A stretch of 64,000 bases of DNA from a bacterium (GTDB taxonomy: Bacteria; Krumholzibacteriota; Krumholzibacteriia; LZORAL124-64-63): the NCBI GenBank assembly GCA_031441465.1, contig JANOEP010000011.1:35890-99889 (forward strand), given 5' to 3'. A model generated the notes under the pieces. That model saw only the letters and a program-made list of their open reading frames with translations, had not been told where the DNA came from and searched no databases. The position numbers and the translations under genes are program-made. Below are positions 21,309-42,847 of the stretch, piece by piece (within the stretch, counting starts at the first letter, position 1; every line of letters starts with the position of its first letter).

Positions 21309-22782
21309 ACCGTCCGCCATCCGCCTGCGTTTCGCCCCCAGCCCCACGGGCTACCTCCACGTGGGCGGGGCGCGCACCGCCCTGTTCAACTGGCTCCACG
21401 CCCGCAAGACCGGCGGCGCCTTCATCCTGCGCATCGAGGACACCGACCAGGAACGCAGCACCGACGCCGCCTACCAGGCCATCCTGCGCAGCATGGAGTG
21501 GCTGGGCCTCGACTGGGACGAGGGCCCCGGCGTCGGCGGCCCCTGCGGTCCCTACCTGCAGTCCGAGCGGCTGGACGTCTACCAGCAGCAGGCCGCGGCG
21601 CTGCGCGGCAGCGGCCGCCTTTACCGGTGCTACTGCACCGGCGAGGAGATCGCGGCCCGCAACGTGGCGCGCGGCGAGAACGAGACCGCCGGTTACGACG
21701 GCCACTGCCGCGAACTCACCGCGCCGCAGGTCGCGGCCTTCACCGCCGCCGGCCGCGCGCCGAGCTGGCGCCTGCGCACCCCGGACGAGGGGGAGACCTT
21801 CTGGTACGACCTCGTCTACGAGAAGCGCGAGTTCCGCAACGACCTGATCACCGACCGCGTCGTGCTGAAGCAGGACGGCTTCCCCACCTACAACTTCGCG
21901 GTCGTGGTCGACGACCATCTCATGCGCATCAGCCACGTGCTGCGCGGCGACGACCACGTCAGCAACACGCCCTTCCAGTTGCAGATCTACGACGCGCTGG
22001 GCTGGGAGCGGCCCAAGTTCGGGCACATGCCGATGATCCTGGGCCCGGACCGCAAGCGCCTCAGCAAGCGTCACGGCGCCACCAGCGTCGAGGAGTTCCG
22101 CGACCAGGGCATCCTGCCCGACGCGATGATCAACTACCTGGCGTTGCTGGGCTGGTCGCCCGGCGCCTCGGGCGACGAGGTGTTCACGCGCGACGGGCTG
22201 GTCAAGGCGTTCAGCCTCAAGCGCGTCAACAGCTCGCCGGCGGCTTTCGACTACGACAAGCTGACCCACATCAACGCCCAGCACCTCAAGCGGCTCGGGC
22301 CGGACGACCGGCTCGCCCTCGCCGAGCCCATGCTCGACGCGCGCGGCTGGGCCCTGGACCCGGCCTGGCGCGCGCCCGCGGCCGACACGCGCGCCTACTT
22401 GACGCTGGTGCTCGCCATGCTCGGCGGCCGCTTCAGCGACCTGCGGCGCATTCCCGAGCAGGTCGGCTTCTTCTTCACCGACGACTTCCCGGTCGACCCC
22501 GAGGCGGCCGCGAACCTGACGGGGGAGGAGGTGCCCGGCCGGCTGCGGGCTCTGGCCGACCGGCTGGAGGCCGCGCTGCCGCCGCAGGACCCGGCGTCCC
22601 AGGACGTGTACGAGTCCGCGGTCCGCGGTCTCGCCGCCGACCTCTGCCTGGAAGCCGGCGACCTGATCCACCCCTGCCGGGTGGCCCTGACCGGCCTGAC
22701 GCGCAGCGCGGGGATGTTCGAAGTCATGTGGCTGATCGGCGGGCCGCGCACCGTCGCCCGGCTGCGCCGTGCGGCCGGCTAG
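21301..22782 (+). CDS. gltX: Glutamyl-tRNA synthetase.
   Basis: Class I HIGH motif (PSPTGYLHVGGART) and KMSKS (RLSKRHG). 493 aa. Confidence 0.9.
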   Translation: MSEPSAIRLRFAPSPTGYLHVGGARTALFNWLHARKTGGAFILRIEDTDQERSTDAAYQAILRSMEWLGLDWDEGPGVGGPCGPYLQSERLDVYQQQAAALRGSGRLYRCYCTGEEIAARNVARGENETAGYDGHCRELTAPQVAAFTAAGRAPSWRLRTPDEGETFWYDLVYEKREFRNDLITDRVVLKQDGFPTYNFAVVVDDHLMRISHVLRGDDHVSNTPFQLQIYDALGWERPKFGHMPMILGPDRKRLSKRHGATSVEEFRDQGILPDAMINYLALLGWSPGASGDEVFTRDGLVKAFSLKRVNSSPAAFDYDKLTHINAQHLKRLGPDDRLALAEPMLDARGWALDPAWRAPAADTRAYLTLVLAMLGGRFSDLRRIPEQVGFFFTDDFPVDPEAAANLTGEEVPGRLRALADRLEAALPPQDPASQDVYESAVRGLAADLCLEAGDLIHPCRVALTGLTRSAGMFEVMWLIGGPRTVARLRRAAG

Positions 22783-24856
22783 CGCTCCCGACCAGCGTGG
22801 AGGGAGGCGTCCGCTGTACCTGCGAATCCTGGCCCGCTACCTGATCGTGTGGGGCGTCTCGGCGGCTTCGCTGGCGCTCGTCGCGCTGCTGTTGCCGGGG
22901 ATCTGGATCGACACGGGTGTGCGCTGGTGGTGGTTGACCGCGGCGATGCTGCCGGTGGAGTTCGGTCTGCTGCTGCTGCTGCTGCGCCCCCTGCTCGTGC
23001 TGGCGACCCTGCCCTTGAACGCGGCCACCCTCGGCCTGCCGACCCTGCTGTTCAACGGTTTGATCCTCTACCTGACGGCCTTGACCTCGCGCGTCGTGAA
23101 CATCGGCAACCTCGGCGACGCCTTCCTGGGTCTGGTGGTGATGACCGTGGTGAACGGTGCGGTCACCGGCTGGCTGGGGATCGACGACGTCTACCCGTTC
23201 TTCCAGACGATCCTGCGCCGGGTCGGCCGCCGCTACGGGCCGCGGGCCCGGCCCGGTCAGGTGCGCGGGTTGCTGATCCTGCAGGTGGACGGGCTGTCGT
23301 GGCGCAGTTGCCGGCGCGCCCTGCGACGCGGCCGCATGCCGACGGTCGCCGCGCTGCGCGCGCTCGGGACGCACCGTCTGCACCGCTGGCACTGCGGCGT
23401 GCCCTCCAACACGCCGGCCGTGCAGAGCGGCATGTTCTACGGCACGCGGACCCGGCTGCCCGGCTACCGCTGGTACGACCGCCGCCACCGCCGCGTGATG
23501 GTCGCCAGCCGCGCCGAGGACCTGCGCGCGGCCGAGGCCGAGTTCGACTGTGGCGCCGGCCTGCTCGCGGGCGGCTCCTGCATCAACAGCATGATGTCGG
23601 GCGGCGCCGCCAAGCGTCTGATGACCCTCAGCGCGTTGCGTGAGTCGAACGATCACCGCCGGCCCGGCGAGCGCGCCGACTTCTCGCTCTTCTGGCTCAG
23701 CCCCTACGCCTACACCAGCGCCGTGACGGCCACGCTCTGGGACTTCCTGACGGCTTGTTTCTGGAACGTCCAATCCGGCTACCACCCGCGCAAGCGCGCC
23801 GTCCGCCGCAGCCTCCGCCAGGCCGCGATGCGGGCCGTCGGCAACGCGTTCCTGCGCGAGACGTCCTTCTTCTGGCTGGCGCAGGACGTGGTGCGGGGCG
23901 TGCCGGTGATCTACTCGAACTTCGTCGGCTACGACGAAGTCGCCCACCACGCCGGACCCGACGACGGCGAAGCCCTGGCGACGTTGACCGGCTTCGACCG
24001 CAAGCTGCAGAAGCTGCGCCGTCTGCTGCGCGACGCCGCCCCCATCGGCTACGACGTGGTCGTGCTGGCCGATCACGGGCAGAGCGCGTCGCTGCCCCTG
24101 CGCGCGTTCTGCGGCGAGACCCTCGAGGCGCTGGTCGCGCGCCTCGCCGGCCGCGTCCGGCCCGTGCTGCCGCCCCGGGACAGCGAGGCCGCCTACCTGG
24201 GCGCCCTGCTGGCGGAACTGCGTGACCAGGGACAGGACCGCCGGTCATGGCTGGCGTTCCAGAGCCGGATCACGCTCGAGCGCCTGCGGGACGACGAGCC
24301 CGATCACGACGCCGGCGCCGGTGAGGAGACGTCCCTGGTCGTGTGCGTTTCGGGCGGGCTCGCCCACATCTATCGCGAGGGCGCGCACCGCCCGCTGCGG
24401 CTGGCCGAGGTGTCCTCGCTCTACCCCGGACTGGTGGAAGGTCTCGCGAGCCACGCGGGCATCGGCTTCGTGCTGGCCCGCGATGACGACGGCGCGGCCT
24501 TGATGATCGGCCGCGACGGCGTGCGCAATCTCGACACCGGGGAGTTGCGGGGCGAGTCCGACCCCCTGGCCCCCTACTGGGACGAGCGGCTCTGGGCCGG
24601 CGAACTCTCGGCCCTGTTGTCCCACGCCCACGCCGGGGACCTGATCGTCAACGGGGCCCTGCTGCCGGACCGCCGGGTCGTGGTCTTCGAGGAACAGCTG
24701 GGCAGCCATGGCGGCCTCGGCGGTCCCCAGACCGAGCCGTTCATCCTGCTGCCGACCTCCTGGCACACCCGCCGCGACGACCTGCGCTCCCCCGAAGCCC
24801 TGCATGCCCACCTGAAGGCGCAGCTGGAGGGCGGGCCCGCCCCCGCGGCGCCCTGA
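22769..24856 (+). CDS. Membrane-anchored alkaline-phosphatase-superfamily protein: N-terminal holin-like 4-TM domain fused to an AlkP-core domain.
   Basis: The hydrophobic N-terminal ~130 aa resemble the phage-holin-4 family. ILQVDGLSW..., ...SNTPAVQSGMFYG..., VVLADHGQS metal-ligand motifs. Exact start is uncertain. Confidence 0.65.
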   Translation: MRPASAPDQRGGRRPLYLRILARYLIVWGVSAASLALVALLLPGIWIDTGVRWWWLTAAMLPVEFGLLLLLLRPLLVLATLPLNAATLGLPTLLFNGLILYLTALTSRVVNIGNLGDAFLGLVVMTVVNGAVTGWLGIDDVYPFFQTILRRVGRRYGPRARPGQVRGLLILQVDGLSWRSCRRALRRGRMPTVAALRALGTHRLHRWHCGVPSNTPAVQSGMFYGTRTRLPGYRWYDRRHRRVMVASRAEDLRAAEAEFDCGAGLLAGGSCINSMMSGGAAKRLMTLSALRESNDHRRPGERADFSLFWLSPYAYTSAVTATLWDFLTACFWNVQSGYHPRKRAVRRSLRQAAMRAVGNAFLRETSFFWLAQDVVRGVPVIYSNFVGYDEVAHHAGPDDGEALATLTGFDRKLQKLRRLLRDAAPIGYDVVVLADHGQSASLPLRAFCGETLEALVARLAGRVRPVLPPRDSEAAYLGALLAELRDQGQDRRSWLAFQSRITLERLRDDEPDHDAGAGEETSLVVCVSGGLAHIYREGAHRPLRLAEVSSLYPGLVEGLASHAGIGFVLARDDDGAALMIGRDGVRNLDTGELRGESDPLAPYWDERLWAGELSALLSHAHAGDLIVNGALLPDRRVVVFEEQLGSHGGLGGPQTEPFILLPTSWHTRRDDLRSPEALHAHLKAQLEGGPAPAAP

Positions 24857-31567: not shown

Positions 31568-32443
31568 CTACTGGTAGAGGGTCCCGGTGTTGATCACGGG
31601 CTGGGTCGCGTGGTTGCTGCACAGCACGACCAGGAGGTTCGAGACCATGGCCGCCTTGCGCTCATCGTCCAGCTCGATGATGGATTTCGAGCTGAGTTCC
31701 TGCAGGGCGCGCTCGACCATGCCGACGGCGCCCTCGACGATCAACTGGCGCGCCGCGACTACGGCGCTGGCCTGCTGGCGCTGCAGCATGGCGCCGGCGA
31801 TCTCGGAGGCGTACGCCAGGTGGCTCAGCCGCGCTTCGATGACCTCGACGCCGGCCCGGGACAGACGCTCGTGCAGTTCCTTTTCGAGTCGGTGGTTGAT
31901 CTCCTCGGTGGTGCCGCGCAGGGTCAGTTCGTTCTCGCCGCCGTCGTAGGGGAAGGCGCTCGCGAGGTGGCGCAGCGCGGCCTCGCTCTGCGTGTGGATG
32001 TAGTCCTCGTAGTGGTCGACCTCGAACAGGGCGCCGGTCGTGTCGACCACGCGCCAGACGACCACCGCGGCGATCTCGATCGGGTTGCCCGTGAGGTCGT
32101 TGACCTTGATCCTCTCGCCGTTGAGGTTGCGCGCCCGCAGCGAGATCTTGATCTTCGTGTAGAAGGGGTTGGCCCAGCAGAAACCGTTCTGCTTCACCGT
32201 GCCGCGGTAGTCGCCGAACAGCAGGACCACGGCCGCCTCGTTCGGATTCACCACGAACAGCCCCGCCAGCAGGAAGATGCTCACGACCATGGCCGAGAGC
32301 GCCGTGATCAGCATCCAGATCACATGGCTGGTGATCGCGTTGACGAACAGCCAGATCGACCCGCCCAGCAAGAGCAGCAGGAAGGGCAGGAAGAACAGGC
32401 CCGAAGCGACCTTCAGCGTCTTCTCGGTGTGCATCGGTGGCAT
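31568..32443 (-). CDS. SPFH/Band-7 family protein (stomatin/HflK-C-like).
   Basis: N-terminal TM, SPFH core, and a C-terminal coiled-coil region ([23 protein letters not shown]). Confidence 0.8.
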
Positions 32444-32734: not shown

Positions 32735-34009
<1,275 letters not shown>

Positions 34010-34110
34010 GCAGGGGTCTCCTTAGTGGGCGTCGTCCGGGTGGCGGGGGGGGGACCGGGATCGGTGCCAGGAGACAAAGTAGGCCCCTTGTGGGGGGCGG
34101 GCAAGTTCCT

Positions 34111-35436
34111 TCAGAGAGCGATGATTTCTTGGATATCCGCCTGATCGCCTCCGAATACGATGCCGATCTCCCTCAGCAGGGGGAACGGCGGATCGCCGCC
34201 GGCGAAGATGAAGACGAAATCGTTCGGCAGGATGGCGGGACCGGTCGTCGTGGTCAGCGCCACGGTGTCGGCCTGGATCGCGGTCAGCTGCGAGTCGCCC
34301 AGGAAGCGCACGGCTCCGGAGGCGATCAGGGCCTCGACCTTGTCCGCGTTGCGTTTCTTGATGCGCAGCAGACGGGGCTTGCGGTAGGAAAGCGTCACTT
34401 CGATGTCCGGCTGGCTGGCCAGGGCGACCGCGGCTTCGACGGCGCTGTCGCCCCCGCCGACGACCAGCACCCGGTTACCCCGGTACAGCGAGGCGTCGAT
34501 GAGGCGGTAGGCCACCTTCGCGGCGTCTTCGCCGGCGATGCCGAGCTTGCGCGGCGTGCCACGGCGGCCCAGGGCGAGCACCACGTTCCGGGCGCGATGG
34601 TCGCCGGCCGTCGTGTGGACTTTCAGGTCGCCGTGGCTGCCCGTGATGCTCAGCAGGCGCTCGTCGGTGTGGATCTTCAGGTCGTGCTCCGTGTGCAGGC
34701 GCAGCCAGATATCCAGCAGGTCCTCCTTGCTGTACTCCTTCTGCAGCAACGGGCCGTACAGGGGGATCACGACCGGCTGGACCAGCACCAGCTTGCGACG
34801 GGGGTATTGCAGGATGGTGCCGCCCGGTCCCTGTTGGTCCAGCACCAGGCAGCGCAGGCCGTGCTGGCGCGCCGTCAGCGCCGCGCTCAGGCCGCCGGGT
34901 CCCGCGCCCACGACGATCGCGTCCCAGCACGCGTCGCCGGCAGGGAAGGGGCCGCGGGCGACGATCGCCTCCATGGCGCGGCGTCCCTGGTCCACGGCGT
35001 TGCTCACCAGAGCGAACCCGCCCAACTCGCCGGCGACGAAGATCCCCGGCCGGCTGGTCTCGAGTTCCGGGCTGAGCACGGGGATGTCGTCGCGGGTCGT
35101 GATGTCTCCCAGACCGACCTTCAGCGCGCCGACGGGGCAGGCTTCGGCGCAGCGGCCGTGGCCGATGCACCGGGCGCCGTTGGTGATCACGGCCTTGCCG
35201 CCGACGATGCCGAGCACGTCGCCTTCCGGGCAGGCCGCCACGCAGGAGCCGCAGCCGATGCAGGCGTTGGCGTCGATGAGCGGGTACTGGCCGACGGGCC
35301 GGTTCATGCCGAGCGCCACGGTCTCGTCCCGCCGGGCGGCGTCCCGGATCCGGGTGGCGCGGAAGCGCAGGAAGTAGGGAACGAACAGGCCGGCGCCCAG
35401 CAGGAGGGCACAGCCCCAGATCAGCAACGATTCCAT
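34111..35436 (-). CDS. Membrane-anchored 4Fe-4S ferredoxin-domain / FAD-dependent pyridine-nucleotide-disulfide oxidoreductase (thioredoxin-reductase-like).
   Basis: N-terminal TM. CIGCGSCVAACP and CIGHGRCAEACP cluster motifs. GAGPGG and GGGDSAVE dinucleotide-binding motifs. Confidence 0.75.
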   Translation of the reverse strand: MESLLIWGCALLLGAGLFVPYFLRFRATRIRDAARRDETVALGMNRPVGQYPLIDANACIGCGSCVAACPEGDVLGIVGGKAVITNGARCIGHGRCAEACPVGALKVGLGDITTRDDIPVLSPELETSRPGIFVAGELGGFALVSNAVDQGRRAMEAIVARGPFPAGDACWDAIVVGAGPGGLSAALTARQHGLRCLVLDQQGPGGTILQYPRRKLVLVQPVVIPLYGPLLQKEYSKEDLLDIWLRLHTEHDLKIHTDERLLSITGSHGDLKVHTTAGDHRARNVVLALGRRGTPRKLGIAGEDAAKVAYRLIDASLYRGNRVLVVGGGDSAVEAAVALASQPDIEVTLSYRKPRLLRIKKRNADKVEALIASGAVRFLGDSQLTAIQADTVALTTTTGPAILPNDFVFIFAGGDPPFPLLREIGIVFGGDQADIQEIIAL

Positions 35437-35453
35437 GTCCCCCCCATGCCGAT

Positions 35454-37076
35454 TCAGAAACGCAGCGAGAGATCGGCGCGCAGACGGTCGGCCTGGAGAT
35501 CGTCGCCGCCGTCCCGCTCGTACTCCAGGCCCGCCAGCCAGGCCCGATTCAGGACCTTCCGCGCGCCGATCCTGGCCCAGTGCGAGTTGCGCGTCGCGGC
35601 GCCGGTGAGGTCGTAGTTGTAGAGCCCGGCCGCAAACTGCAGGTCCAGCCCGTCGCGCAGAGCATGATCCAGCCGCAGGGAAGGTGTCAATCCGGACACC
35701 CGCGGGCCGTCGAAGCCCCGCAGGTCCAGGGTCAGGTGGTTGCCGGCTCCCAGGATGCCGGCGCGTCCTACGCCGAAGCCCCAGCTCCAGGTGTCGCCGT
35801 CGCGGCCGGCGCCGCCGCGCACGCCGCCGTCGGCGCTCAACGACCAACCGGCGCCTCCGGTCCAGCGCGTCCGCAGTCGCAGGCCCATCCGCTCGGCGTC
35901 GCGGAAGAGGCTGTCGGGGAGCGAACGGTTCGTCCAAGTGCGGTACAGCTCGCGGCGGTCGTGACTCAGCGAGGCGCTCAGGTTCGGCGTGAATCGCGCG
36001 GAGAGGCTGGTGACCGAGTTGCTCAGGGCGAAGCGACGGCCTTCCGTCGCGTACCGCCAGCCCCGGTTGACTTCCAGTTCGGCGCTCTGGTGCAGGCGGA
36101 AGGCGCCCGTGCGGCCGAGGTCGCCGTCCAGCAGGAGGTACTCGCGGCTGGCTTCGCTGCCGTGGTACTCCCCGACCGCGGCCAGGACGAGATTCCAGGA
36201 CCGGTCGGCGCCGTCGTCGTCGGTCCAGGCCAGGAAACCGCCACCCTTGCGCTCGTCGCTGCTCGGCTCGCTGGTGCGCGGGTCGGGCGTGAAGCCCGCG
36301 AAGGCGCCGACCCGCGTGCCGGCGGCCAGGCGCCGGCTGGCCAGGACCCCGTCGAGCTGGCCGAAACCGCTGACGGCCCGGCTGGTGATCCTGCCCAGGC
36401 TGTAGTGCCAGTCGTCGGCTGGAAGCTCGTGCGAAAGGGTGAAGAGGTAGACGCGGTTGCGCCACTCGTTCTCGGCGGCGGACGAGTAGCCGGCGGCGCG
36501 GCGGTTCTGGCGCAGGGTGCCCCGCACCTGCAGTTCGTGGCCGCCGGCGAACGGTTCGCGAGACCGCAGGTCGAAGCGCAGCGCCGGCTGGGTCAAGTCG
36601 AGGTCGGCCTCGCTGCGGTCGTTGCTGTGCAGCCACTGCAGGGCGAGTCGGCCGCGCAGGAAGAAAGGCTGCCGCGGCGCCGTCGCCGCCGGTCGCGGCA
36701 CGGGCGCGATCGACCCGGCGCCGGCGGCGGGCTCCGTGACGGCCTCGGTGTCGGCCGGCGCGGGCGCGGGGCCTTGCCGGATCACGGTGGCCGTGTCGCC
36801 GGGTTGGACGTCCGCCGGCGCACCCGTGATCCGGCAAGAGGCCGAATGCTCGGCCAGGTGCTCGAGCGTGATCTCGGTGACGGGCGCGTCGCGGCGCAGG
36901 ATCTGCAACACGTCGCCCGCGCGCAGGCCGTCGGCGCGGCCGGCGTCGAGGTAGACCTGATCGGCGGACACGTAGCTGACCTTGGCGCGCGGCAGGTCGT
37001 CCGCCCGCGCCGCCGGGGACGCGAGACCGAGGATCAAGATCCCGGCCAGCAACCAAGGGTGCTGTCGCTGTGTCAT
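35454..37076 (-). CDS. Outer-membrane beta-barrel protein, a putative porin component of a porin-cytochrome complex.
   Basis: Signal peptide. Alternating amphipathic beta-strand pattern over ~450 aa. C-terminal ...DLSLRF with terminal Phe, typical of OMPs. ATG overlaps the stop of the upstream cytochrome gene. Confidence 0.65.
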   Translation of the reverse strand: MTQRQHPWLLAGILILGLASPAARADDLPRAKVSYVSADQVYLDAGRADGLRAGDVLQILRRDAPVTEITLEHLAEHSASCRITGAPADVQPGDTATVIRQGPAPAPADTEAVTEPAAGAGSIAPVPRPAATAPRQPFFLRGRLALQWLHSNDRSEADLDLTQPALRFDLRSREPFAGGHELQVRGTLRQNRRAAGYSSAAENEWRNRVYLFTLSHELPADDWHYSLGRITSRAVSGFGQLDGVLASRRLAAGTRVGAFAGFTPDPRTSEPSSDERKGGGFLAWTDDDGADRSWNLVLAAVGEYHGSEASREYLLLDGDLGRTGAFRLHQSAELEVNRGWRYATEGRRFALSNSVTSLSARFTPNLSASLSHDRRELYRTWTNRSLPDSLFRDAERMGLRLRTRWTGGAGWSLSADGGVRGGAGRDGDTWSWGFGVGRAGILGAGNHLTLDLRGFDGPRVSGLTPSLRLDHALRDGLDLQFAAGLYNYDLTGAATRNSHWARIGARKVLNRAWLAGLEYERDGGDDLQADRLRADLSLRF

Positions 37077-38101
37077 CAGTTACCTCGGGGGTGGCACTGG
37101 AAGCAGGCGGCGCTCTGGTAGGCGTAGCCGTTCTCGCCCTGGTGTCGCTGGTCCGTTTCCGTGCGGTTGTGCTCGTGGCAGAAGATGCACTCGAACACGG
37201 CATAGTTCGTCGGCGTCACGTGGCAGTCGACGCAGGCGTTCCACTCGTTGTTGTGCCGGCCCGAGTAGATCGGGAACAGCGTGTCGTGGTTCCAGTTCGA
37301 CGGCTGCCAGACCGAGGTCGTGTGGCAGGAGGCGCACTGGGTGTTGAAGCCGGCGGCGACGTGGCCGGGATCGTTGGCCGCCTCGTAGTCGGGGCGGTGG
37401 CAGGCGTAGCAGTCGGTCGGCGTGCCCGTGTAGCCCGCGGTGTGGCAGGAGGCGCAGGTCGCAGCGGCGTGGGCGCCGGTCAGCGGGAAGGCCGCCGAGT
37501 GGATGAAGGAGCCGGAGCCCCAATCGCTCGCCGTCATCCCGTGGCAGCTGGAGCAGTCCGTGCTGAAGCCGTTGGCCGCGTGGTCGGGATCGCGCGTCGC
37601 TTCGTAGTCGGTGTCGTGGCAACCGAGGCAGTCGGCGGCGATCGCGGTGTGCTCCTCGCCGGGCGATCCCTGGTGGCAGGCGTCGCAGTCCGCGACGGCG
37701 TGGGCGCCGAGCAGGGGGAAGCCGGTGGCGGGGTGGCGGTTGCGGCTCGCGTCGCGGACGTCCCAGCCGGAGGTGTCGTGGCAGTCTTCGCAGTTCGTGC
37801 CGAAGCGCCGGCGGTGCACGTCGAGGTGGCAGTCGGCGCAGGCCGACGCGACCCGGCGGAACTGCAGGTCCTGATGGCACCCGGAGCAGACGGCCTGGGC
37901 GTGCCGGCCGGTCAGGGCGTAGCCGGTCGTCGTGTGGTCGAACGAGGGCGGCGGCCAGGACACGTTCCACGACGAGGCGTCGTGACAGGCCTCGCAGCGC
38001 ACGTCGATGTCCCCGTGGGGGCTGAGGTCCGGGGTCTGGGCTGGAGCCCGGACCGCGACGGACAGGAGGAACGACAACGGCAGCAGCCAGCGTCGGGTCA
38101 T
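37076..38101 (-). CDS. Multiheme cytochrome c, 13 CxxCH motifs, secreted.
   Basis: Signal peptide MTRRWLLPLSFLLSVAVRAPAQ. 13 CxxCH motifs in 341 aa. ATGA overlap with the upstream gene. Confidence 0.85.
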   Translation of the reverse strand: MTRRWLLPLSFLLSVAVRAPAQTPDLSPHGDIDVRCEACHDASSWNVSWPPPSFDHTTTGYALTGRHAQAVCSGCHQDLQFRRVASACADCHLDVHRRRFGTNCEDCHDTSGWDVRDASRNRHPATGFPLLGAHAVADCDACHQGSPGEEHTAIAADCLGCHDTDYEATRDPDHAANGFSTDCSSCHGMTASDWGSGSFIHSAAFPLTGAHAAATCASCHTAGYTGTPTDCYACHRPDYEAANDPGHVAAGFNTQCASCHTTSVWQPSNWNHDTLFPIYSGRHNNEWNACVDCHVTPTNYAVFECIFCHEHNRTETDQRHQGENGYAYQSAACFQCHPRGN

Positions 38102-39825
38102 GGCCGGTCTCCCTTGGGTTTCGATTCGAGGAACCCCTGCGTGTGGCAGGCCTCGCAGCGCTTGTCGACCGGGCGGTACCGGACCAGGAAGTCGTCGGCG
38201 TCGCCCTCGCGGAGATGGCAGGCCTGGCAGGCCACGTGCTGATGGCCGCCGGCGAGCGGGAAGGTGGTGTCGCGATCGTGGACGAAGCGCTCCGCTTTCC
38301 AGCCGGCGGCGGTGGTGTGGCAGCGGGTGCAGTCGGTGGCGGGCGGGGTCGTCGCCGCGGCGAACTGGCCGCGGTGCGGATCCTGGTGGCACGCGTCGCA
38401 GCGTTCCGGGGTGGGGCTGAAGCGCAGGCTGTCCGAGGCGGCCCGCCGATCCGGCGCGGCCTGCCGATCCAGTGTGGCCTGCCGATCCTGTGGGGCGTGG
38501 CAGGCCCGGCAGGTGGTCGTCGCGTGCTTGCCCGAGAGCGGGAAGCGCGTGCGGCCGTGGTCGTAGGCCACCTGCCGCCACGAGGCGACGTCGTGGCAGA
38601 GCCGGCAACCCGCTTCGGCCTTCTGCGCCGTGCTCGTGCCGGCGTGGGGATCCCGGTGGCAGTCCGTGCACGCCGCCGCCGGCCGCTGCAGGGGCGTCGG
38701 CGCCCCCTGGCGCGGCGGCGCGTGGCAGGCGCTGCAGGCCACGGCGAGGTGGGCGCCCTGCAGGCCGAAACCGGTGGAGTCGTGGCGCGCGACCGTGAAC
38801 GACGACGGTTTGAAGCCGTTCACGGTGTGGCAGCGGCTGCAGGCGTCGTAGGTGCGTCCCTCGGCGGCCTCCGGGTGGCGGTCTTGGTGGCAGCCGTCGC
38901 AGCGCGCGTAGACCAGGGCGCCGCGGGGCGCGTCCGCGCGGTGGCAGGCGTCGCAGCGCAGGGCCGTGTGGCGCCCCCGCAACGGGTAGCGGGTGCGATC
39001 GTGGTCGAAGTCGCCGCCGGCGACCCGCCGCCAGTCCGCGGGATCGTGGCAGCGGGCGCAATCGGCGCCGAGGGAGCCGGCGTGGGGGTCCTTGTGGCAG
39101 GCCGCGCAGCTCGCGTGCTCGACGGGGCGGTAACGGTGCCAGGTGTCGGCAACGCCTTCGACGGTCTCGGTCGTCGCCCGGTGGCAGCGGTCGCAGGCCA
39201 GGTCGCGGTGTTTCCCTGCGAGGACGAAGTCGGCCTTGGCGTGGTCGAACCCGGGAGCGGGCTTCCAGGCGTCCGGCGTGTGGCAGGTCGTGCAGGCGCC
39301 TTCGAACTGGCCACGGTGTTCGTCGCGGTGGCAGTCCAGGCAACCGGCGCCGAGGCCCAGGTAGGTGCGGCCGGGGTTCTTGCCGCGGTCGCGGACGAGG
39401 GAGACGTCCTGGAGCAGATCCGCCCGGTGGCACTTCCGGCAGTCCAGCTTCCGGTGGGCTCCCGCCAGCGGCCACCCAGCCGCAGCGTGGTCGAAGGCGG
39501 CCGGGCCGGCCGGCCAGTGGATCAGGTCGAAGTCGCGACCCTGGTGCTCGACGTGGCAGGTTGTGCAGCGTTCGTGGCCGGCGGTGGCGTGGAGTCCGCG
39601 TCCCGCGGCCACCCGCGTGGCGATCTCCTGGTGGCAGGCCAGGCACTTCGGGCCGACTTTCTGGTCGCCCAGCTCGTGGCAGGACGTGCACGCACGGACG
39701 CCCTCCAGGTGCTCGTGAACGCGGGAGAGCTTGCCGGGCGACAGCTGCGCCGCGGCGAGGACCGGGAATCCCGCAATCAGGACAATATTGATCGCAAAAT
39801 GAGACACACGTCTCAGAACACCCAT
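38098..39825 (-). CDS. Multiheme cytochrome c, ~20 CxxCH motifs, with N-terminal signal/anchor.
   Basis: 575 aa with ~20 CxxCH heme-binding motifs spaced ~20-30 aa apart. Confidence 0.85.
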   Translation of the reverse strand: MGVLRRVSHFAINIVLIAGFPVLAAAQLSPGKLSRVHEHLEGVRACTSCHELGDQKVGPKCLACHQEIATRVAAGRGLHATAGHERCTTCHVEHQGRDFDLIHWPAGPAAFDHAAAGWPLAGAHRKLDCRKCHRADLLQDVSLVRDRGKNPGRTYLGLGAGCLDCHRDEHRGQFEGACTTCHTPDAWKPAPGFDHAKADFVLAGKHRDLACDRCHRATTETVEGVADTWHRYRPVEHASCAACHKDPHAGSLGADCARCHDPADWRRVAGGDFDHDRTRYPLRGRHTALRCDACHRADAPRGALVYARCDGCHQDRHPEAAEGRTYDACSRCHTVNGFKPSSFTVARHDSTGFGLQGAHLAVACSACHAPPRQGAPTPLQRPAAACTDCHRDPHAGTSTAQKAEAGCRLCHDVASWRQVAYDHGRTRFPLSGKHATTTCRACHAPQDRQATLDRQAAPDRRAASDSLRFSPTPERCDACHQDPHRGQFAAATTPPATDCTRCHTTAAGWKAERFVHDRDTTFPLAGGHQHVACQACHLREGDADDFLVRYRPVDKRCEACHTQGFLESKPKGDRP

Positions 39826-40646
39826 CGGTACCCCAGGGCCACGGTTACGGCCACGTGGATCACCATGATGACCAACATGAGGTAAGCAAAGGGTTTGTGG
39901 ATGACGTGCCAATAGTGGAACAACTCCCGGATGCGGTTGTGGAACAGGATTCGACGACCGAGCAAGACCCGCGCCTTGGCGGCCGCCAGGACCGTCATGG
40001 AGGCCCCGGCCGGCAACTGCTTTCGTAACCGCATGCCCAGCAACATGTTGCTCAGAGGCAGGCGCCACAGGCTGCCGCTCGCCGTGGTGGCGGTCGCCAG
40101 GGTGGACATCGTGCGCGCGTCCAGCCCGTGAGCCTCGCGCAGCAGACGGTCGGCCTCCTCGAGCTGGAGCTGGATCTGTTCGATGGTCATGGCTTCGCCC
40201 AGCACGTTGCGCGGCAGTTGCAGGTACAGATACCGTCCGAACACGCCGCTGAGCGCCACGGCCATCATGGACCAGTAGCTCACTGCGACCAGGCCCTGGA
40301 CCTTGAGCGAAGTGTGCAGCGTCACCAGCAGAGGTCCCGAGATTCCCAGGAAGATGTGCCCGTCGAGCCAGCGCGCGATGTGCCCTTTGCCGGCAAGCCC
40401 GTGCCAGCGCTTGCGCAGGGAGTAGAGCAGCAGCAGCAGGATCTGCAGGCTGCCGACGATGCCCAGGCCGTGGCCCACCGTGCCGGCCGGACGCAGGCTG
40501 CGGAAATCCGGGTGGTGGGGGCGCAGGTCCAACGGCAGGCTGTAGTAGTCGATTCCGACCACGAGCAGCCAGGTGATCGCGGCGGCGAGCAGGAGATAAC
40601 TGAATCGCAGCACGATGCGGAACCCGCGGGTGCTCCCGGCGGCCAT
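39813..40646 (-). CDS. Integral membrane protein with His-rich TM helices, a candidate b-type cytochrome / quinol-oxidising electron-entry component.
   Basis: 277 aa with ~6 TM segments. Conserved His within the helices (HGLGIVG, HIFLGISG, HYWHVIHKPF). Overlaps the start of the 20-heme gene by 13 nt. Confidence 0.5.
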   Translation of the reverse strand: MAAGSTRGFRIVLRFSYLLLAAAITWLLVVGIDYYSLPLDLRPHHPDFRSLRPAGTVGHGLGIVGSLQILLLLLYSLRKRWHGLAGKGHIARWLDGHIFLGISGPLLVTLHTSLKVQGLVAVSYWSMMAVALSGVFGRYLYLQLPRNVLGEAMTIEQIQLQLEEADRLLREAHGLDARTMSTLATATTASGSLWRLPLSNMLLGMRLRKQLPAGASMTVLAAAKARVLLGRRILFHNRIRELFHYWHVIHKPFAYLMLVIMVIHVAVTVALGYRWVF

Positions 40647-40822
40647 GGCGTCTCCTTGTCGGTCAACGGATTCGGGCGGCATCATTCTAGGCTCTCTTGC
40701 TTCCGATACAACCAGTATGTCGTGTCGCAAATGGTTGTCCTGGAGCGGCGGAGGTGATAGTTTTCCCCACATGCCCGGTGCCCCGGCGGAGCGATCCCGG
40801 GGCGCCCCTTTTTCCGCGTGTG

Positions 40823-42847
40823 ATGACGGAGGTGTCCATGGACGTCAGCGGCAAGGCCAAGAGCCTCCCCGAGAACGCCTACCGCAAGCTCAAGCCCGGC
40901 GAGGAATACATCCCCGTCGTGCCTGCCGGTCGGATCGTACCCGAGCTGACACCCTACTCCCTGATCTGGGGTCTGGTGTTCGCGGTGATCTTCTCGGCGG
41001 CGGCCGCCTACCTGGGCCTGAAGATCGGCCAGGTGTTCGAAGCGGCCATCCCCATCACGATCCTGGCGATCGGCCTGAGCGCGAAGCGCAAGGACGCCCT
41101 GCAGCAGAACGTGATGATCCAGTCCATCGGCTCCGCCTCGGGCGTGGTCGTGGCCGGCGCCATCTTCACGCTGCCCGGCATCTACATCCTGAACCTGTCG
41201 GACAAGACCAATTTCATGCAGATGTGCCTGGCCTCCCTGCTGGGCGGCTTCCTGGGCATCCTGTTCCTGATCCCGTTCCGCCGCTTCTTCGTCAAGGAGA
41301 TGCACGGCGAGTTCCCGTTCCCCGAGGCCACCGCCAGCACCGAGGTGCTGATGGCGGGCGAGGCCGGCGGCGGCCAGGCGAGCGTGCTGGTCAAGAGCGG
41401 TCTGCTGGCCGGCGGTTTCCAGCTGTTCTCGCAGACGTGCGGCCTGTGGCGCGAGACCTTCGGCACGCCCGCCTTCGCGTGGGGCGAGTCGCTTTCGAGG
41501 AAGGTGCGCCTGGAGTTCCACATGATGACCGAGGCCGCGATCATCGGCCTGGGCTACATCATCGGCCTGCGCTACGCGCTGATCATCGCCTGCGGTTCGT
41601 TCCTGTCGTGGTGGGTCATGACTCCCATGATCGGCATCCTGGGCAAGGGCGTGACGGTCGCCGGCACGCTGTACCGCCTGGAAGCCCTCGACGGTCTGGA
41701 CACGCTCATGATCTTCCGCAACTTCGTGCGGCCGGTGGGCATCGGCGCGATCGCGATGAGCGGTCTGATCGGCGTCTGGAAGAGCCGCAGCATCATCCTG
41801 GGCGCCTTCAAGCTGGCGGCCGGCGGCGCGGCGGCCAAGTCCGCGGCCGGTGGCGTCGTCGAGCGCACGCAGCGCGACCTGCCCATGAACATCGTGACCT
41901 CGGGCCTGATCATGACCCTGTTGGCGGTGTTCTGCTTCTTCTGGTTCATGGTGCCCGGCGTGGGCATGGGCCAGGCCCTGGCCGGCCTGGCGGTCGTGGC
42001 CGGCATCTCGTTCCTGTTCACGACGGTCGCCGCGCGCGCCATCGCCATCGTGGGCACCAACCCGGTGTCCGGCATGACCCTGATGACCCTGATCATCAGC
42101 TCGGTGGTCCTGAAGGCCGTGGGCCTGCAGGGCCAGGAGGGCATCGTGGCGGCGCTGTTGATCGGCGGCGTGGTCTGCACCGCGCTCTCGATGAGCGGCG
42201 GCTTCGTCAGCGACCTGAAGATCGGCTACTGGCTGGGCACGACGCCCTCCACCCAGGAGAAATGGAAGTTCCTGGGCACGGTCGTGGCGGCCGTCTCGGT
42301 GACCGCGGTGATCATGATCCTGAACACCAGCTACGGCTTCTCCGGGGAGGGCGCCCTGCCCGCGCCCCAGGCCAACGCGATGGTGGCCGTGATCGAGCCC
42401 CTGATGACCGGCCAGCCGGCCCCTTGGCTGCTGTACATGGCCGGCATCTTCATGGCGCTGATCCTGCAGTGGACGGGCCTGCCGGCGCTCGCCTTCGCCC
42501 TGGGCATGTACCTGCCCCTGGAGGTCAACACGCCGGTGTTGGCCGGCGGTCTGATCGCCTACTGGGTCGGCAAGGGCGGCAGCGAAGCGGCGCAGACCGC
42601 GCGCAAGGATCGCGGCACGCTGATCGCGAGCGGCTTCGTGGCCGGCGGCGCCATCATGGGCGTCATTGCCTCGATCATCAAGTTCGCGGGGATCCAGTCG
42701 TCCGGCGACGCCAAGTGGAGCGTGGACCGTGTCCTGGGCACGGACGGGTGGCTCGAGAACCCCGCTTCGGCCGTGCTGACGCTGGTGATGTTCTGCCTCC
42801 TGGGCTACTACCTGTACCGCAGCTCGCGGTCGGCCGCCAAGGACTGA
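40823..42847 (+). CDS. OPT-family oligopeptide transporter.
   Basis: ~16 TM segments with OPT signature regions. 674 aa. Confidence 0.8.
   Translation: MTEVSMDVSGKAKSLPENAYRKLKPGEEYIPVVPAGRIVPELTPYSLIWGLVFAVIFSAAAAYLGLKIGQVFEAAIPITILAIGLSAKRKDALQQNVMIQSIGSASGVVVAGAIFTLPGIYILNLSDKTNFMQMCLASLLGGFLGILFLIPFRRFFVKEMHGEFPFPEATASTEVLMAGEAGGGQASVLVKSGLLAGGFQLFSQTCGLWRETFGTPAFAWGESLSRKVRLEFHMMTEAAIIGLGYIIGLRYALIIACGSFLSWWVMTPMIGILGKGVTVAGTLYRLEALDGLDTLMIFRNFVRPVGIGAIAMSGLIGVWKSRSIILGAFKLAAGGAAAKSAAGGVVERTQRDLPMNIVTSGLIMTLLAVFCFFWFMVPGVGMGQALAGLAVVAGISFLFTTVAARAIAIVGTNPVSGMTLMTLIISSVVLKAVGLQGQEGIVAALLIGGVVCTALSMSGGFVSDLKIGYWLGTTPSTQEKWKFLGTVVAAVSVTAVIMILNTSYGFSGEGALPAPQANAMVAVIEPLMTGQPAPWLLYMAGIFMALILQWTGLPALAFALGMYLPLEVNTPVLAGGLIAYWVGKGGSEAAQTARKDRGTLIASGFVAGGAIMGVIASIIKFAGIQSSGDAKWSVDRVLGTDGWLENPASAVLTLVMFCLLGYYLYRSSRSAAKD

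Follow-up and report, generated by a model that had tools for sequence, protein, structure and literature searches.

The stretch analyzed here, called the window throughout, is a 64-kb piece of contig JANOEP010000011.1 (assembly GCA_031441465.1) from a Krumholzibacteriota bacterium, and between positions 34111 and 40646 it holds five minus-strand genes, all transcribed in the same direction, which we named A to E in the order of transcription (Table 1). They encode an inner-membrane protein (A), two multihaem c-type cytochromes (B and C), an outer-membrane barrel protein (D) and a membrane-anchored iron–sulfur (FeS) flavoprotein (E). The evidence supports the view that these genes form a PCC3-type porin–cytochrome system, in a previously undescribed form that extends across lineages of the Fibrobacterota-Chlorobiota-Bacteroidota (FCB) group and the Acidobacteriota and that always includes the FeS flavoprotein. 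A preliminary description of the stretch, made from the sequence alone, had pointed out five co-directional and tightly coupled genes encoding a His-rich membrane protein, a cytochrome with about 20 haems, a second one with 13 haems, a 540-residue outer-membrane protein ending in Phe and a membrane-anchored ferredoxin/FAD oxidoreductase. Its coordinates and its ATGA and 13-nt overlaps were all confirmed, 20 and 13 CXXCH motifs were indeed counted, and the features reported below bear out what it said of the last two products.

Table 1. Coordinates of the five genes and of one possible operon end in the window.
Feature	Position	Strand	Description
A	39813..40646	minus	277 aa; five-helix inner-membrane protein (IMP); predicted di-haem b transmembrane electron carrier of the PCC3/PCC4 IMP type
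B	38098..39825	minus	575 aa; 20-haem-motif cytochrome c with Sec signal peptide; predicted periplasm-spanning wire
C	37076..38101	minus	341 aa; 13-haem-motif cytochrome c with trihaem repeats; predicted barrel-associated or surface cytochrome
D	35454..37076	minus	540 aa; outer-membrane protein with signal peptide and 22-strand beta-barrel model
E	34111..35436	minus	441 aa; anchor, two-cluster ferredoxin and FAD/NAD(P)H domain; predicted cytoplasmic electron-input dehydrogenase
Terminator-like hairpin	34083..34098	minus	possible operon end (weak); 13 nt past the E stop; GCCCC-loop-GGGGC, T-poor tail

The genes are closely packed: A and B overlap by 13 nt, B and C by 4 nt (ATGA) and C and D by 1 nt (TGATG), and D is separated from E by a gap of 17 nt. 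An AAGGAG sequence lies 7 nt ahead of the ATG of A. No open reading frames (ORFs) of the 64-kb window other than B and C contain two or more CXXCH motifs. A promoter and terminator scan of the region gave no promoter-like site, and its two terminator-like sites compare with 2.2 expected by shuffling, the hairpin after E being suggestive by position only.

The five predicted proteins

Protein A has 13 His among its 277 residues, and homologues of exactly this length align with it over 100%. Its AlphaFold2 model (predicted local distance difference test score 85.4) contains five long helices, at residues 2–30, 56–80, 90–111, 119–149 and 217–270, together with a helical cytoplasmic insert; the hydropathy peaks agree with this arrangement, and the loops obey the positive-inside rule with the N-terminus in the cytoplasm. 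Two W-x3-H-x13-H motifs (W93LDGH97...H111 and W246HVIH250...H264) and one SGxxG motif (S133GVFG137) are invariant in 44–120 homologues, and His59, 97, 111, 244, 247, 250 and 264 are invariant in 120. Four of these His residues make up the pairs His97/His111 and His250/His264, each with 13 residues between the partners, and from this conserved four-His pattern A is predicted to be a di-haem b membrane protein. The best membrane-protein matches to the model, with a modest fold resemblance, are CybB and FdnI, which are di-haem b proteins. A Foldseek search of the model against the PDB gave no match with E < 0.4, the A-family profile found none among the PDB sequences, and nothing in Pfam or NCBIfam rose above threshold: DUF4405 (PF14358) reached 16.2 bits against a cut-off of 26.7, and Ferric_reduct (PF01794) was not matched at E ≤ 0.1. 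Membership of A in DUF4405 and in the cytochrome b561/Ni_hydr_CYTB family (PF01292) was rejected on scores below gathering.

In three database proteins (P0268, P0285 and P0291) the initial portion of A seems to be joined to either a multihaem cytochrome or a Pyr_redox domain. Such fusions, if real, would be direct evidence of partnership. Since they cover only the first part of A and are without its fifth transmembrane helix (TM5), they are probably frameshift or gene-calling chimeras and were excluded as evidence.

Protein E matches Pyr_redox_3 with 125 bits (cut-off 30) and the 4Fe-4S dicluster family Fer4_10 with 44.7 bits. It begins with a hydrophobic helix (residues 4–22), an anchor found in 38 of 41 homologues, and because this helix is followed by an Arg-rich stretch the remainder of the protein should, by the positive-inside rule, face the cytoplasm. 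As the ferredoxin domain comes directly after the anchor, its clusters would lie at the membrane face. The first FeS motif, C59xxC62xxC65xxxC69P, is invariant in the 41 family members. The second, C90xxH93xxC96xxxC100P (residues 89–100, window 35137–35172), contains a His that is likewise invariant (41/41, including the Emticicia homologue described below), and suggests a His-ligated [4Fe-4S] cluster or a 3Fe cluster at the likely exit toward the membrane partner. Two glycine motifs, GAGPGG (at 177, for FAD) and GGGDSA (at 327, for NAD(P)H), the latter followed by a conserved SYRK, characterize the flavin domain, in whose sequence a redox-active CxxC is absent. The closest solved structures are YpdA/Bdr (7a7b, 1.6e-19), thioredoxin reductases (TrxR) and ferredoxin–NADP reductases of the TrxR type. 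E shares this fold, but it was not accepted as a YpdA or TrxR proper, because it has no such CxxC and scores below the equivalog cut-offs (144.8 vs 339.9 for YpdA and 72.5 vs 343 for TrxR).

B and C are both made of c7/c3-type haem units. B contains 47 His and 1 Met, has 28.8 residues per haem and matches Cytochrome_C7 (83.5 bits), c3_2 (60 bits) and the MtrC/MtrF domain (48.6 bits); C contains 28 His and 2 Met, has 26.2 residues per haem and matches Cytochrome_C7 (56.1 bits). With His plentiful and Met nearly absent, all the haems of both proteins can be bis-His ligated. The potential of such haems is usually low, as would suit an NAD(P)H donor. The spacing of the motifs in C (36,16,16 / 35,19,25 / 33,15,25 / 34,15,28) corresponds to one haem plus four units of three. 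No solved relative of B was found among the PDB sequences. Sec-type signal peptides are present in B, C and D, a lipobox Cys is absent from the sequences of all three, and no surface-sorting signal was recognized in C.

In protein D the signal peptide ends ARA/DD and the C-terminus reads LSLRF. A confident structure model shows a six-strand periplasmic beta domain (about residues 30–100), a Pro/Ala-rich linker (about 101–138) and a 22-strand barrel (139–539), so the beta-strands on which the preliminary description had staked its porin assignment are predicted. D gave nothing above threshold in Pfam or NCBIfam, with no match to Plug, TonB_dep_Rec or MtrB_PioB. In place of a plug domain the model has the external beta domain of about 70 residues and the linker, which is disordered, and with neither a plug nor a TonB-receptor signature the lumen of the barrel is presumably free. 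The layout, an N-terminal periplasmic domain followed by a large barrel, resembles that of ushers and of TonB-dependent receptors as well; a TonB-dependent receptor was ruled out because the Plug and TonB_dep_Rec matches and the plug itself are missing, the barrel alone being alignable.

Recurrence of the module and distant relatives of A

A synteny search in related genomes, which the preliminary description had proposed as a check, was made on a sample consisting of the 80 best genome loci and of loci fetched earlier, in which A, D and E were marked by profiles and the cytochromes by CXXCH counts. The module was recovered in 55 loci, each with both A and D, in the order A-cyt-cyt-D-E (cyt standing for a cytochrome) in 29 of them, E-A-cyt-cyt-D in eight and A-cyt-cyt-cyt-D-E in seven, the rest showing a few other variants. 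In 49 of the 55, E is there as well. The other six loci are cut, five of them ending no more than two bases from D and one running into another cytochrome up to the locus end, and since all six stop at or just after D, absence of E is in no case demonstrated. In several lineages E adjoins A directly, which argues for a direct partnership between the two proteins. D is always present in the module loci and mostly translationally coupled to the preceding cytochrome; in all loci examined the cytochromes are linked to this barrel, and not to the nitrite or sulfite reductases to which the preliminary description had considered they might prove to be tied. With the gene set shared by dozens of independent genomes, chance does not account for the arrangement.

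The first cytochrome, at the position of B, has 20 haems in 44 of the 55 loci and 17 in six. A haem number that stays near 20 across phyla fits a B that bridges a fixed distance, namely the periplasm, and 20 haems would approach its width, given that the ten haems of MtrA span about 8–10 nm (a figure cited in He et al. 2017, PMC5566968). The second cytochrome, at the position of C, has 13–85 haems, and in 45 of the 55 loci (L001-L087) the number is 1 mod 3 (13, 16, 19, 22, 25, 28, 31, 46, 49, 58, 73 or 85), so that its length varies by whole trihaem units. The C of the window is the shortest common version, its N- and C-terminal ends are conserved with those of the 40-haem homologue of Emticicia, and in some lineages, the window not among them, an extra cytochrome of about 10 haems is found ahead of D. 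Taken together, the variable repeats, the conserved ends and the translational coupling to D would suit a C that is a barrel-associated wire of variable outward length.

At least 1,364 proteins homologous to A were found in a set of 5.8 billion proteins, an exhaustive profile search returned 4,034 clusters at 50% identity with E ≤ 1e-3 (653 with E ≤ 1e-30), and relatives of A occur in at least 532 species-level GTDB genomes. By record titles, the hosts belong to Krumholzibacteria, Calditrichia/Calditrichota (including a metagenome-assembled genome, MAG, assigned to Caldithrix abyssi), Zixibacteria, Eisenbacteria, KSB1, Ignavibacteria, Gemmatimonadota, Neomarinimicrobiota, Thermoanaerobaculia and Acidobacteriia; the labels that submitters gave to the closest MAGs are inconsistent (Latescibacterota, Fibrobacter, Gemmatimonas, ‘bacterium’). 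A word-indexed search with D retrieved hypothetical proteins only, 48 of them, from MAGs of Krumholzibacteria, Latescibacteria and Acidobacteriia and on contigs with the same gene set, A being by far the better conserved of the two proteins.

A tblastn search of A against plasmids revealed a full module in Emticicia oligotrophica DSM 17448, on the 100-kb plasmid pEMTOL02 of this cultured aerobic member of the Bacteroidota (L088, NC_018749.1, 78197-90781); the same search with B found Emticicia alone. Directly after ccsA, a cytochrome-c biogenesis gene, come A (37% identity) and E (39%), then cytochromes of 23 and 40 haems and, last in the module (EMTOL_RS21090-21110), D, which scores 144.7 bits on the D profile; a gene for a GW-dipeptide protein follows. 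Its location on a plasmid suggests that the module is mobile. In an Acidobacteriia MAG (GCA_020072785.1, L004) the locus is rearranged, with cytochromes of 23 and 28 haems, D, a 276-residue protein of unknown nature, an A-like protein and an E with a zinc-ribbon, and it adjoins genes for a trimethylamine-type methyltransferase and a corrinoid protein.

More distant homologues of A, with 60–69 bits against the A profile and with all four His and the SGxxG kept, are carried on plasmids of Sphingobium, Methylophaga and Legionella. Each is preceded by a gene of the flavo-FeS type whose stop overlaps its start, and the kind of protein differs by lineage. In Sphingobium herbicidovorans (L089, pMSHV 813957-817324) it is an 825-residue protein with Pyr_redox_3, two cyclic nucleotide monophosphate (cNMP)-binding domains and the 4Fe-4S domain Fer4_11; the homologue of A, for which Ni_hydr_CYTB (PF01292) scored 22.1 bits against a cut-off of 30.1, precedes a cytochrome of 10 haems whose N-terminal domain is FHA-like, and the locus could represent a cNMP-regulated version of the same input stage. 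In Methylophaga pinxianii (L090) the upstream gene encodes 612 residues with FAD_binding_6, NAD_binding_1 and the 2Fe-2S domain Fer2, which in Pfam terms is the NOX/FNR type, and in Legionella pneumophila (L091) the gene in the same position is annotated, by the record only, as a 2Fe-2S protein. The A-type protein of these two has 252 residues and is followed by a c7-like cytochrome in Methylophaga or by an unannotated protein of similar size in Legionella. Genes for metal handling lie near both triads (a heavy-metal P-type ATPase and DUF411 in Methylophaga, a multicopper oxidase in Legionella), which may be periplasmic modules for metal reduction or detoxification. Seven plasmids of Alteromonas macleodii gave a match to the A-type protein only.

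In the window, the module lies between a divergent gene for an OPT oligopeptide transporter upstream (40697-42847, plus strand) and, downstream, genes for peptidase T (PepT; 32735-34009, minus strand) and a Band-7 protein (31568-32443, minus strand), with a sigma-54 activator, a sulfatase, peroxiredoxins and a tRNA synthetase of the GluRS/GlnRS family farther out. The sequence OPT, module, PepT, Band-7, sigma-54 activator and sulfatase is collinear with that in another Krumholzibacteriia MAG (L001), whose module proteins are just about 38–52% identical to those of the window. A real link to peptide catabolism is one possible reading of these neighbors, and plain conservation of synteny is another. 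Over 36001-40000, which includes the barrel and cytochrome genes, the plus-strand GC skew rises to as much as +0.12, compared with about 0–0.05 in most of the window, and the rise probably stems from codon composition in these genes rather than from replication. Elsewhere in the window, an ORF at 22736-24856 (plus strand) pairs a holin-like four-helix membrane domain (Phage_holin_4_2) with a type I phosphodiesterase/nucleotide pyrophosphatase domain, which is an unusual combination.

A proposed electron route and its competitors

The module is, in our judgment, likely to be a conduit that takes electrons across the outer membrane. The fuller reading that we favor, to which we give roughly even odds (about 0.5), is that of a PCC3-type trans-envelope multihaem conduit equipped with its own NAD(P)H dehydrogenase, i.e. 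a full pathway from NAD(P)H to the cell surface along which electrons move outward. In the route that we infer, from donor, cofactor binding and membrane topology to barrel occupant, direction of flow and acceptor, E would be held at the inner membrane face by its N-terminal helix, oxidize NAD(P)H on FAD and pass the electrons through its two FeS clusters, one of which would have the invariant His in place of a Cys. A would then carry them across the inner membrane on two b haems between TM3 and TM5, with His97 and His250 near the cytoplasm and His111 and His264 near the periplasm; B, with 20 bis-His c haems, would bridge the periplasm; and C would sit in, or pass through, the plug-less 22-strand barrel of D and show its haems at the cell surface. 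Extracellular acceptors (metal oxides, humics or partner cells) could in this way be reduced without obligatory passage through the quinone pool. Outward flow is favored because an electron that leaves the inside-negative cell moves with the membrane potential, whereas inward transfer to NAD(P)+ would be uphill both in redox terms and electrically. Since the export of electrons from NAD(P)H would leave a proton inside and dissipate the membrane potential, the route would be an electron sink for a fermentative or acceptor-limited metabolism, and not an energy-conserving respiration.

Several points weigh against such a pathway from NAD(P)H to the surface. The evidence is computational throughout, made up of gene content, motifs, predicted folds and the conserved composition and order of the genes, and PCC3 is likewise a prediction, of which no member has been characterized biochemically. 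CybB and FdnI react with quinones, and A may likewise exchange electrons with them, in keeping with the proposal of He et al. (PMC5566968). The place of C inside the barrel and its extracellular exposure are assumptions on our part, C having neither a lipobox nor a recognizable surface-sorting signal. PCC3 was found in Fe(II) oxidizers, for which inward flow was assumed (PMC5566968), and the loss of membrane potential that NAD(P)H-driven export would entail is itself a cost to the cell.

The identity of the electron donor is where the most serious competitor comes in: the conduit would be of the same PCC3 type but coupled to quinones, with A oxidizing quinol or reducing quinone, in the way that cytochrome b does in hydrogenase or formate dehydrogenase, and with E as an accessory for poising, repair or regulation. 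Quinone coupling is the published model for the IMPs of PCC3 and PCC4 (PMC5566968), it agrees with CybB and FdnI being the nearest structural matches of A, and the weak Ni_hydr_CYTB match of the Sphingobium homologue fits it too. We nevertheless consider it unlikely, because E is found in every locus able to show it, beside A in several lineages, and because its ferredoxin domain is placed where the clusters would meet the membrane face; no quinone-site motif turned up in A, though no specific search for one was made. In addition, A homologues of other phyla show translational coupling to NAD(P)H flavo-FeS proteins of three unrelated kinds. The presence of unrelated dehydrogenase types of the same chemistry in the same place beside A speaks more strongly for NAD(P)H input than any other observation, and it argues that the A family serves to take electrons from NAD(P)H, by way of FeS clusters and a pair of b haems, to c haems in the periplasm. 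The resemblance of E, which has no redox-active CxxC, to the NADPH-dependent enzymes YpdA, TrxR and FNR also speaks for such a donor. The preliminary description had made A a candidate quinol-oxidizing b-type cytochrome; the four-His pattern upholds the b-type part, whereas quinol oxidation is not the best-supported role, the linkage to E favoring NAD(P)H as the source.

A further competitor dispenses with the trans-outer-membrane conduit. A, E and B would constitute a periplasmic reductase or an electron store, and D would be a secretion channel for C or a channel for solutes, a view with which the porin-less triads of cytochrome, IMP and redox protein that exist in Proteobacteria, the usher- and receptor-like layout of D and the missing lipobox of C are all consistent. 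It is improbable, however, in light of the invariable presence of D and its usual translational coupling to the cytochrome before it, and of a D model that is plug-less and comes with no TonB or Plug match in Pfam. A cytochrome of 13–85 haems would, moreover, be hard to fit into a periplasm that the constant 20-haem protein already matches.

The poorest prospect is an uptake conduit, in which extracellular Fe(II), minerals, cathodes or partner cells would supply the electrons and these would travel through C/D, B and A to E, for NAD(P)+ reduction, or to quinone: with NAD(P)+ at about −320 mV the transfer from Fe(II) would be strongly uphill, the inward electron would oppose the inside-negative potential with no energy-coupling subunit in the module, and the hosts are mostly predicted heterotrophs or fermenters, the module of the window being flanked by genes for peptide uptake and a peptidase. 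The discovery of PCC3 in iron oxidizers, as a proposed Fe(II) oxidase, speaks for uptake, as does the published case of a Krumholzibacteria MAG that grew abundant in an iron-fed bioreactor and has markers of both iron oxidation and iron reduction, but in S. lithotrophicus ES-1 the two PCC3 clusters were down-regulated on Fe(II) and judged not involved.

Should the favored pathway hold, it would provide PCC3-like systems with a concrete and testable input, NAD(P)H by way of a dedicated FeS flavoprotein and a di-haem b protein, and would give a functional handle on an IMP family of more than 4,000 sequence clusters. Emticicia oligotrophica DSM 17448, which is easily grown, makes genetics and biochemistry of the module feasible. 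The architecture is a standard and strongly conserved one across FCB and Acidobacteriota lineages, which dominate sediments, aquifers and wastewater and of whose extracellular electron transfer little is known.

Relation to known electron-transfer systems

PCC3 was predicted from the genomes of Fe(II) oxidizers as a set of a porin, an ‘extracellular’ cytochrome, a periplasmic cytochrome and an inner-membrane protein (He et al. 2017, PMC5566968). Its extracellular cytochrome has a median of 34 haems, and up to 85, and its periplasmic cytochrome a median of 21, while the IMP has about 300 residues, five helices, an SGXXG on TM4 and W-x3-H-x13-H on TM3 and TM5, with two b haems predicted (PMC5566968). 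Found in Fe(II)-oxidizing Gallionellaceae and in Leptothrix, the system was proposed to be a quinone-linked Fe(II) oxidase with inward flow (PMC5566968, PMC9900912); the periplasmic cytochromes of Gallionellaceae have 21, 24 or 27 haems and have been suggested to span the periplasm (PMC9900912). In S. lithotrophicus ES-1 the order is IMP (Slit_1446), 24-haem periplasmic cytochrome, 28-haem extracellular cytochrome and porin (Slit_1446-1449), and the PCC3 porin of L. cholodnii is predicted to have 22 strands. The module of the window has much in common with this system. A-B-C-D is the gene order of Slit_1446-1449; A, with 277 residues and five helices, carries all the IMP motifs, its His pairs on TM3 and TM5 and its SGxxG on TM4; B has 20 haems as compared with 21, 24 or 27, and a low number of residues per haem; the second cytochrome is repeat-rich and reaches 85 haems in both sets, although the copy in the window has only 13 and would be extracellular by assumption; and the D model has the same 22 strands as the porin predicted for L. 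cholodnii. The match is drawn from published motifs, gene order and haem counts, direct sequence comparison with proteobacteria being that with the plasmid IMPs (60–69 bits). Two things set the module apart. Reports of PCC3 are confined to Alpha-, Beta- and Gammaproteobacteria, whereas the present family occurs in Krumholzibacteria, Calditrichota, Zixibacteria, Eisenbacteria, KSB1, Ignavibacteria, Gemmatimonadota, Acidobacteriota and on a Bacteroidota plasmid, and it has a fifth, obligate gene, E, for which descriptions of PCC3 list no counterpart. Since 2017 PCC3 has remained an orphan prediction, widespread and with record haem counts, yet unresponsive to Fe(II) in the one isolate tested and with no assigned electron source.

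The survey of He et al. also contains porin-less clusters (Suppl. Table 6) in which a cytochrome and an IMP with two H-x13-H motifs are joined by an ‘other redox protein’ of 412–425, 608–702 or 796–805 residues, and an Fe-S gene was noted beside the IMP of PCC4; PCC4 and the porin-less clusters were read as quinone-linked (PMC5566968). These sizes fit E (441 residues) and the upstream proteins of Methylophaga (612) and Sphingobium (825), whereas the cytochromes of those clusters are small (4–10 haems) and a porin is mostly lacking. The porin-less clusters were deemed unlikely to serve extracellular transfer, and their redox proteins were not identified as NAD(P)H dehydrogenases (PMC5566968). 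Neither the five-gene module nor an NAD(P)H input is described in the MHCscan survey, the Rifle bioanode genomes, the Shi 2014 Pcc survey, the Caldithrix abyssi genome paper, a preprint on extracellular electron transfer in peat, the Krumholzibacteria bioreactor paper or the A. vinosum pyrite paper, and a full-text literature search for HX13H with multiheme gave He et al. 2017 as its sole match. The Pcc cluster of Ignavibacterium recorded in the Shi 2014 survey (IALB_1837-1840, with a 14-haem periplasmic cytochrome) is a different cluster.

The preliminary description had likened the locus to the Pcc conduits of Geobacter and to MtrCAB of Shewanella, and as far as the layout of a porin–cytochrome conduit goes the likeness is real, PCC3 being the closest system described. 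With Geobacter Pcc (OmaB-OmbB-OmcB) and Ext the module shares the joint encoding of a periplasmic cytochrome, a porin-like barrel and an outer cytochrome, and haem domains of the c7 type. The Geobacter clusters differ in having 8- and 12-haem cytochromes, the outer one a lipoprotein, a barrel predicted to have about 20 strands and neither IMP nor flavoprotein, and membership was rejected on the haem counts and the missing lipobox. MtrCAB (6R2Q) has 26 strands to the 22 of D and includes a lipoprotein decahaem cytochrome that has no equivalent here, where the haems number 20 and 13. Membership was rejected on these strand and haem numbers, on the absence of a lipobox and of an MtrB_PioB match in D, and on the scores of the DmsE/MtrA decahaem model TIGR03508 (48 bits for B and 20.9 for C, cut-off 192.2).

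For the input stage, the nearest parallels are NOX/FRE and MsrQ-Fre, in which an NAD(P)H flavoprotein feeds two stacked b haems in the outward direction (the comparison with NOX/FRE was also made by He et al. 2017). Common to both are two His pairs on two helices, 13 residues apart, and the partner of A in Methylophaga shares the FAD_binding_6/NAD_binding_1 fold of NOX. However, A has one helix fewer (five as against six), the dehydrogenase is a polypeptide of its own, with another fold and added FeS clusters, and the acceptor would be at least 33 c haems and not O2 or Fe(III) directly; membership of A was rejected on the helix number and on the lack of a PF01794 match, the His-pair geometry alone being shared. 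A broader proposal can be put forward more tentatively: quinone-independent extracellular electron transfer, with a split NOX-like input, a 20-haem span and a porin-sheathed wire of 13–85 haems through which cytoplasmic reducing equivalents would pass straight to acceptors outside the cell, may be found in many uncultured Gram-negative phyla, and PCC3 and PCC4 of proteobacteria may work alike. MtrCAB is fed by quinol through CymA, and not by a dedicated b-haem protein and flavoprotein. Compared with that quinol-fed chain of Shewanella, the pathway proposed here would, if it holds, represent a new logic of Gram-negative extracellular electron transfer, one that bypasses the quinones.

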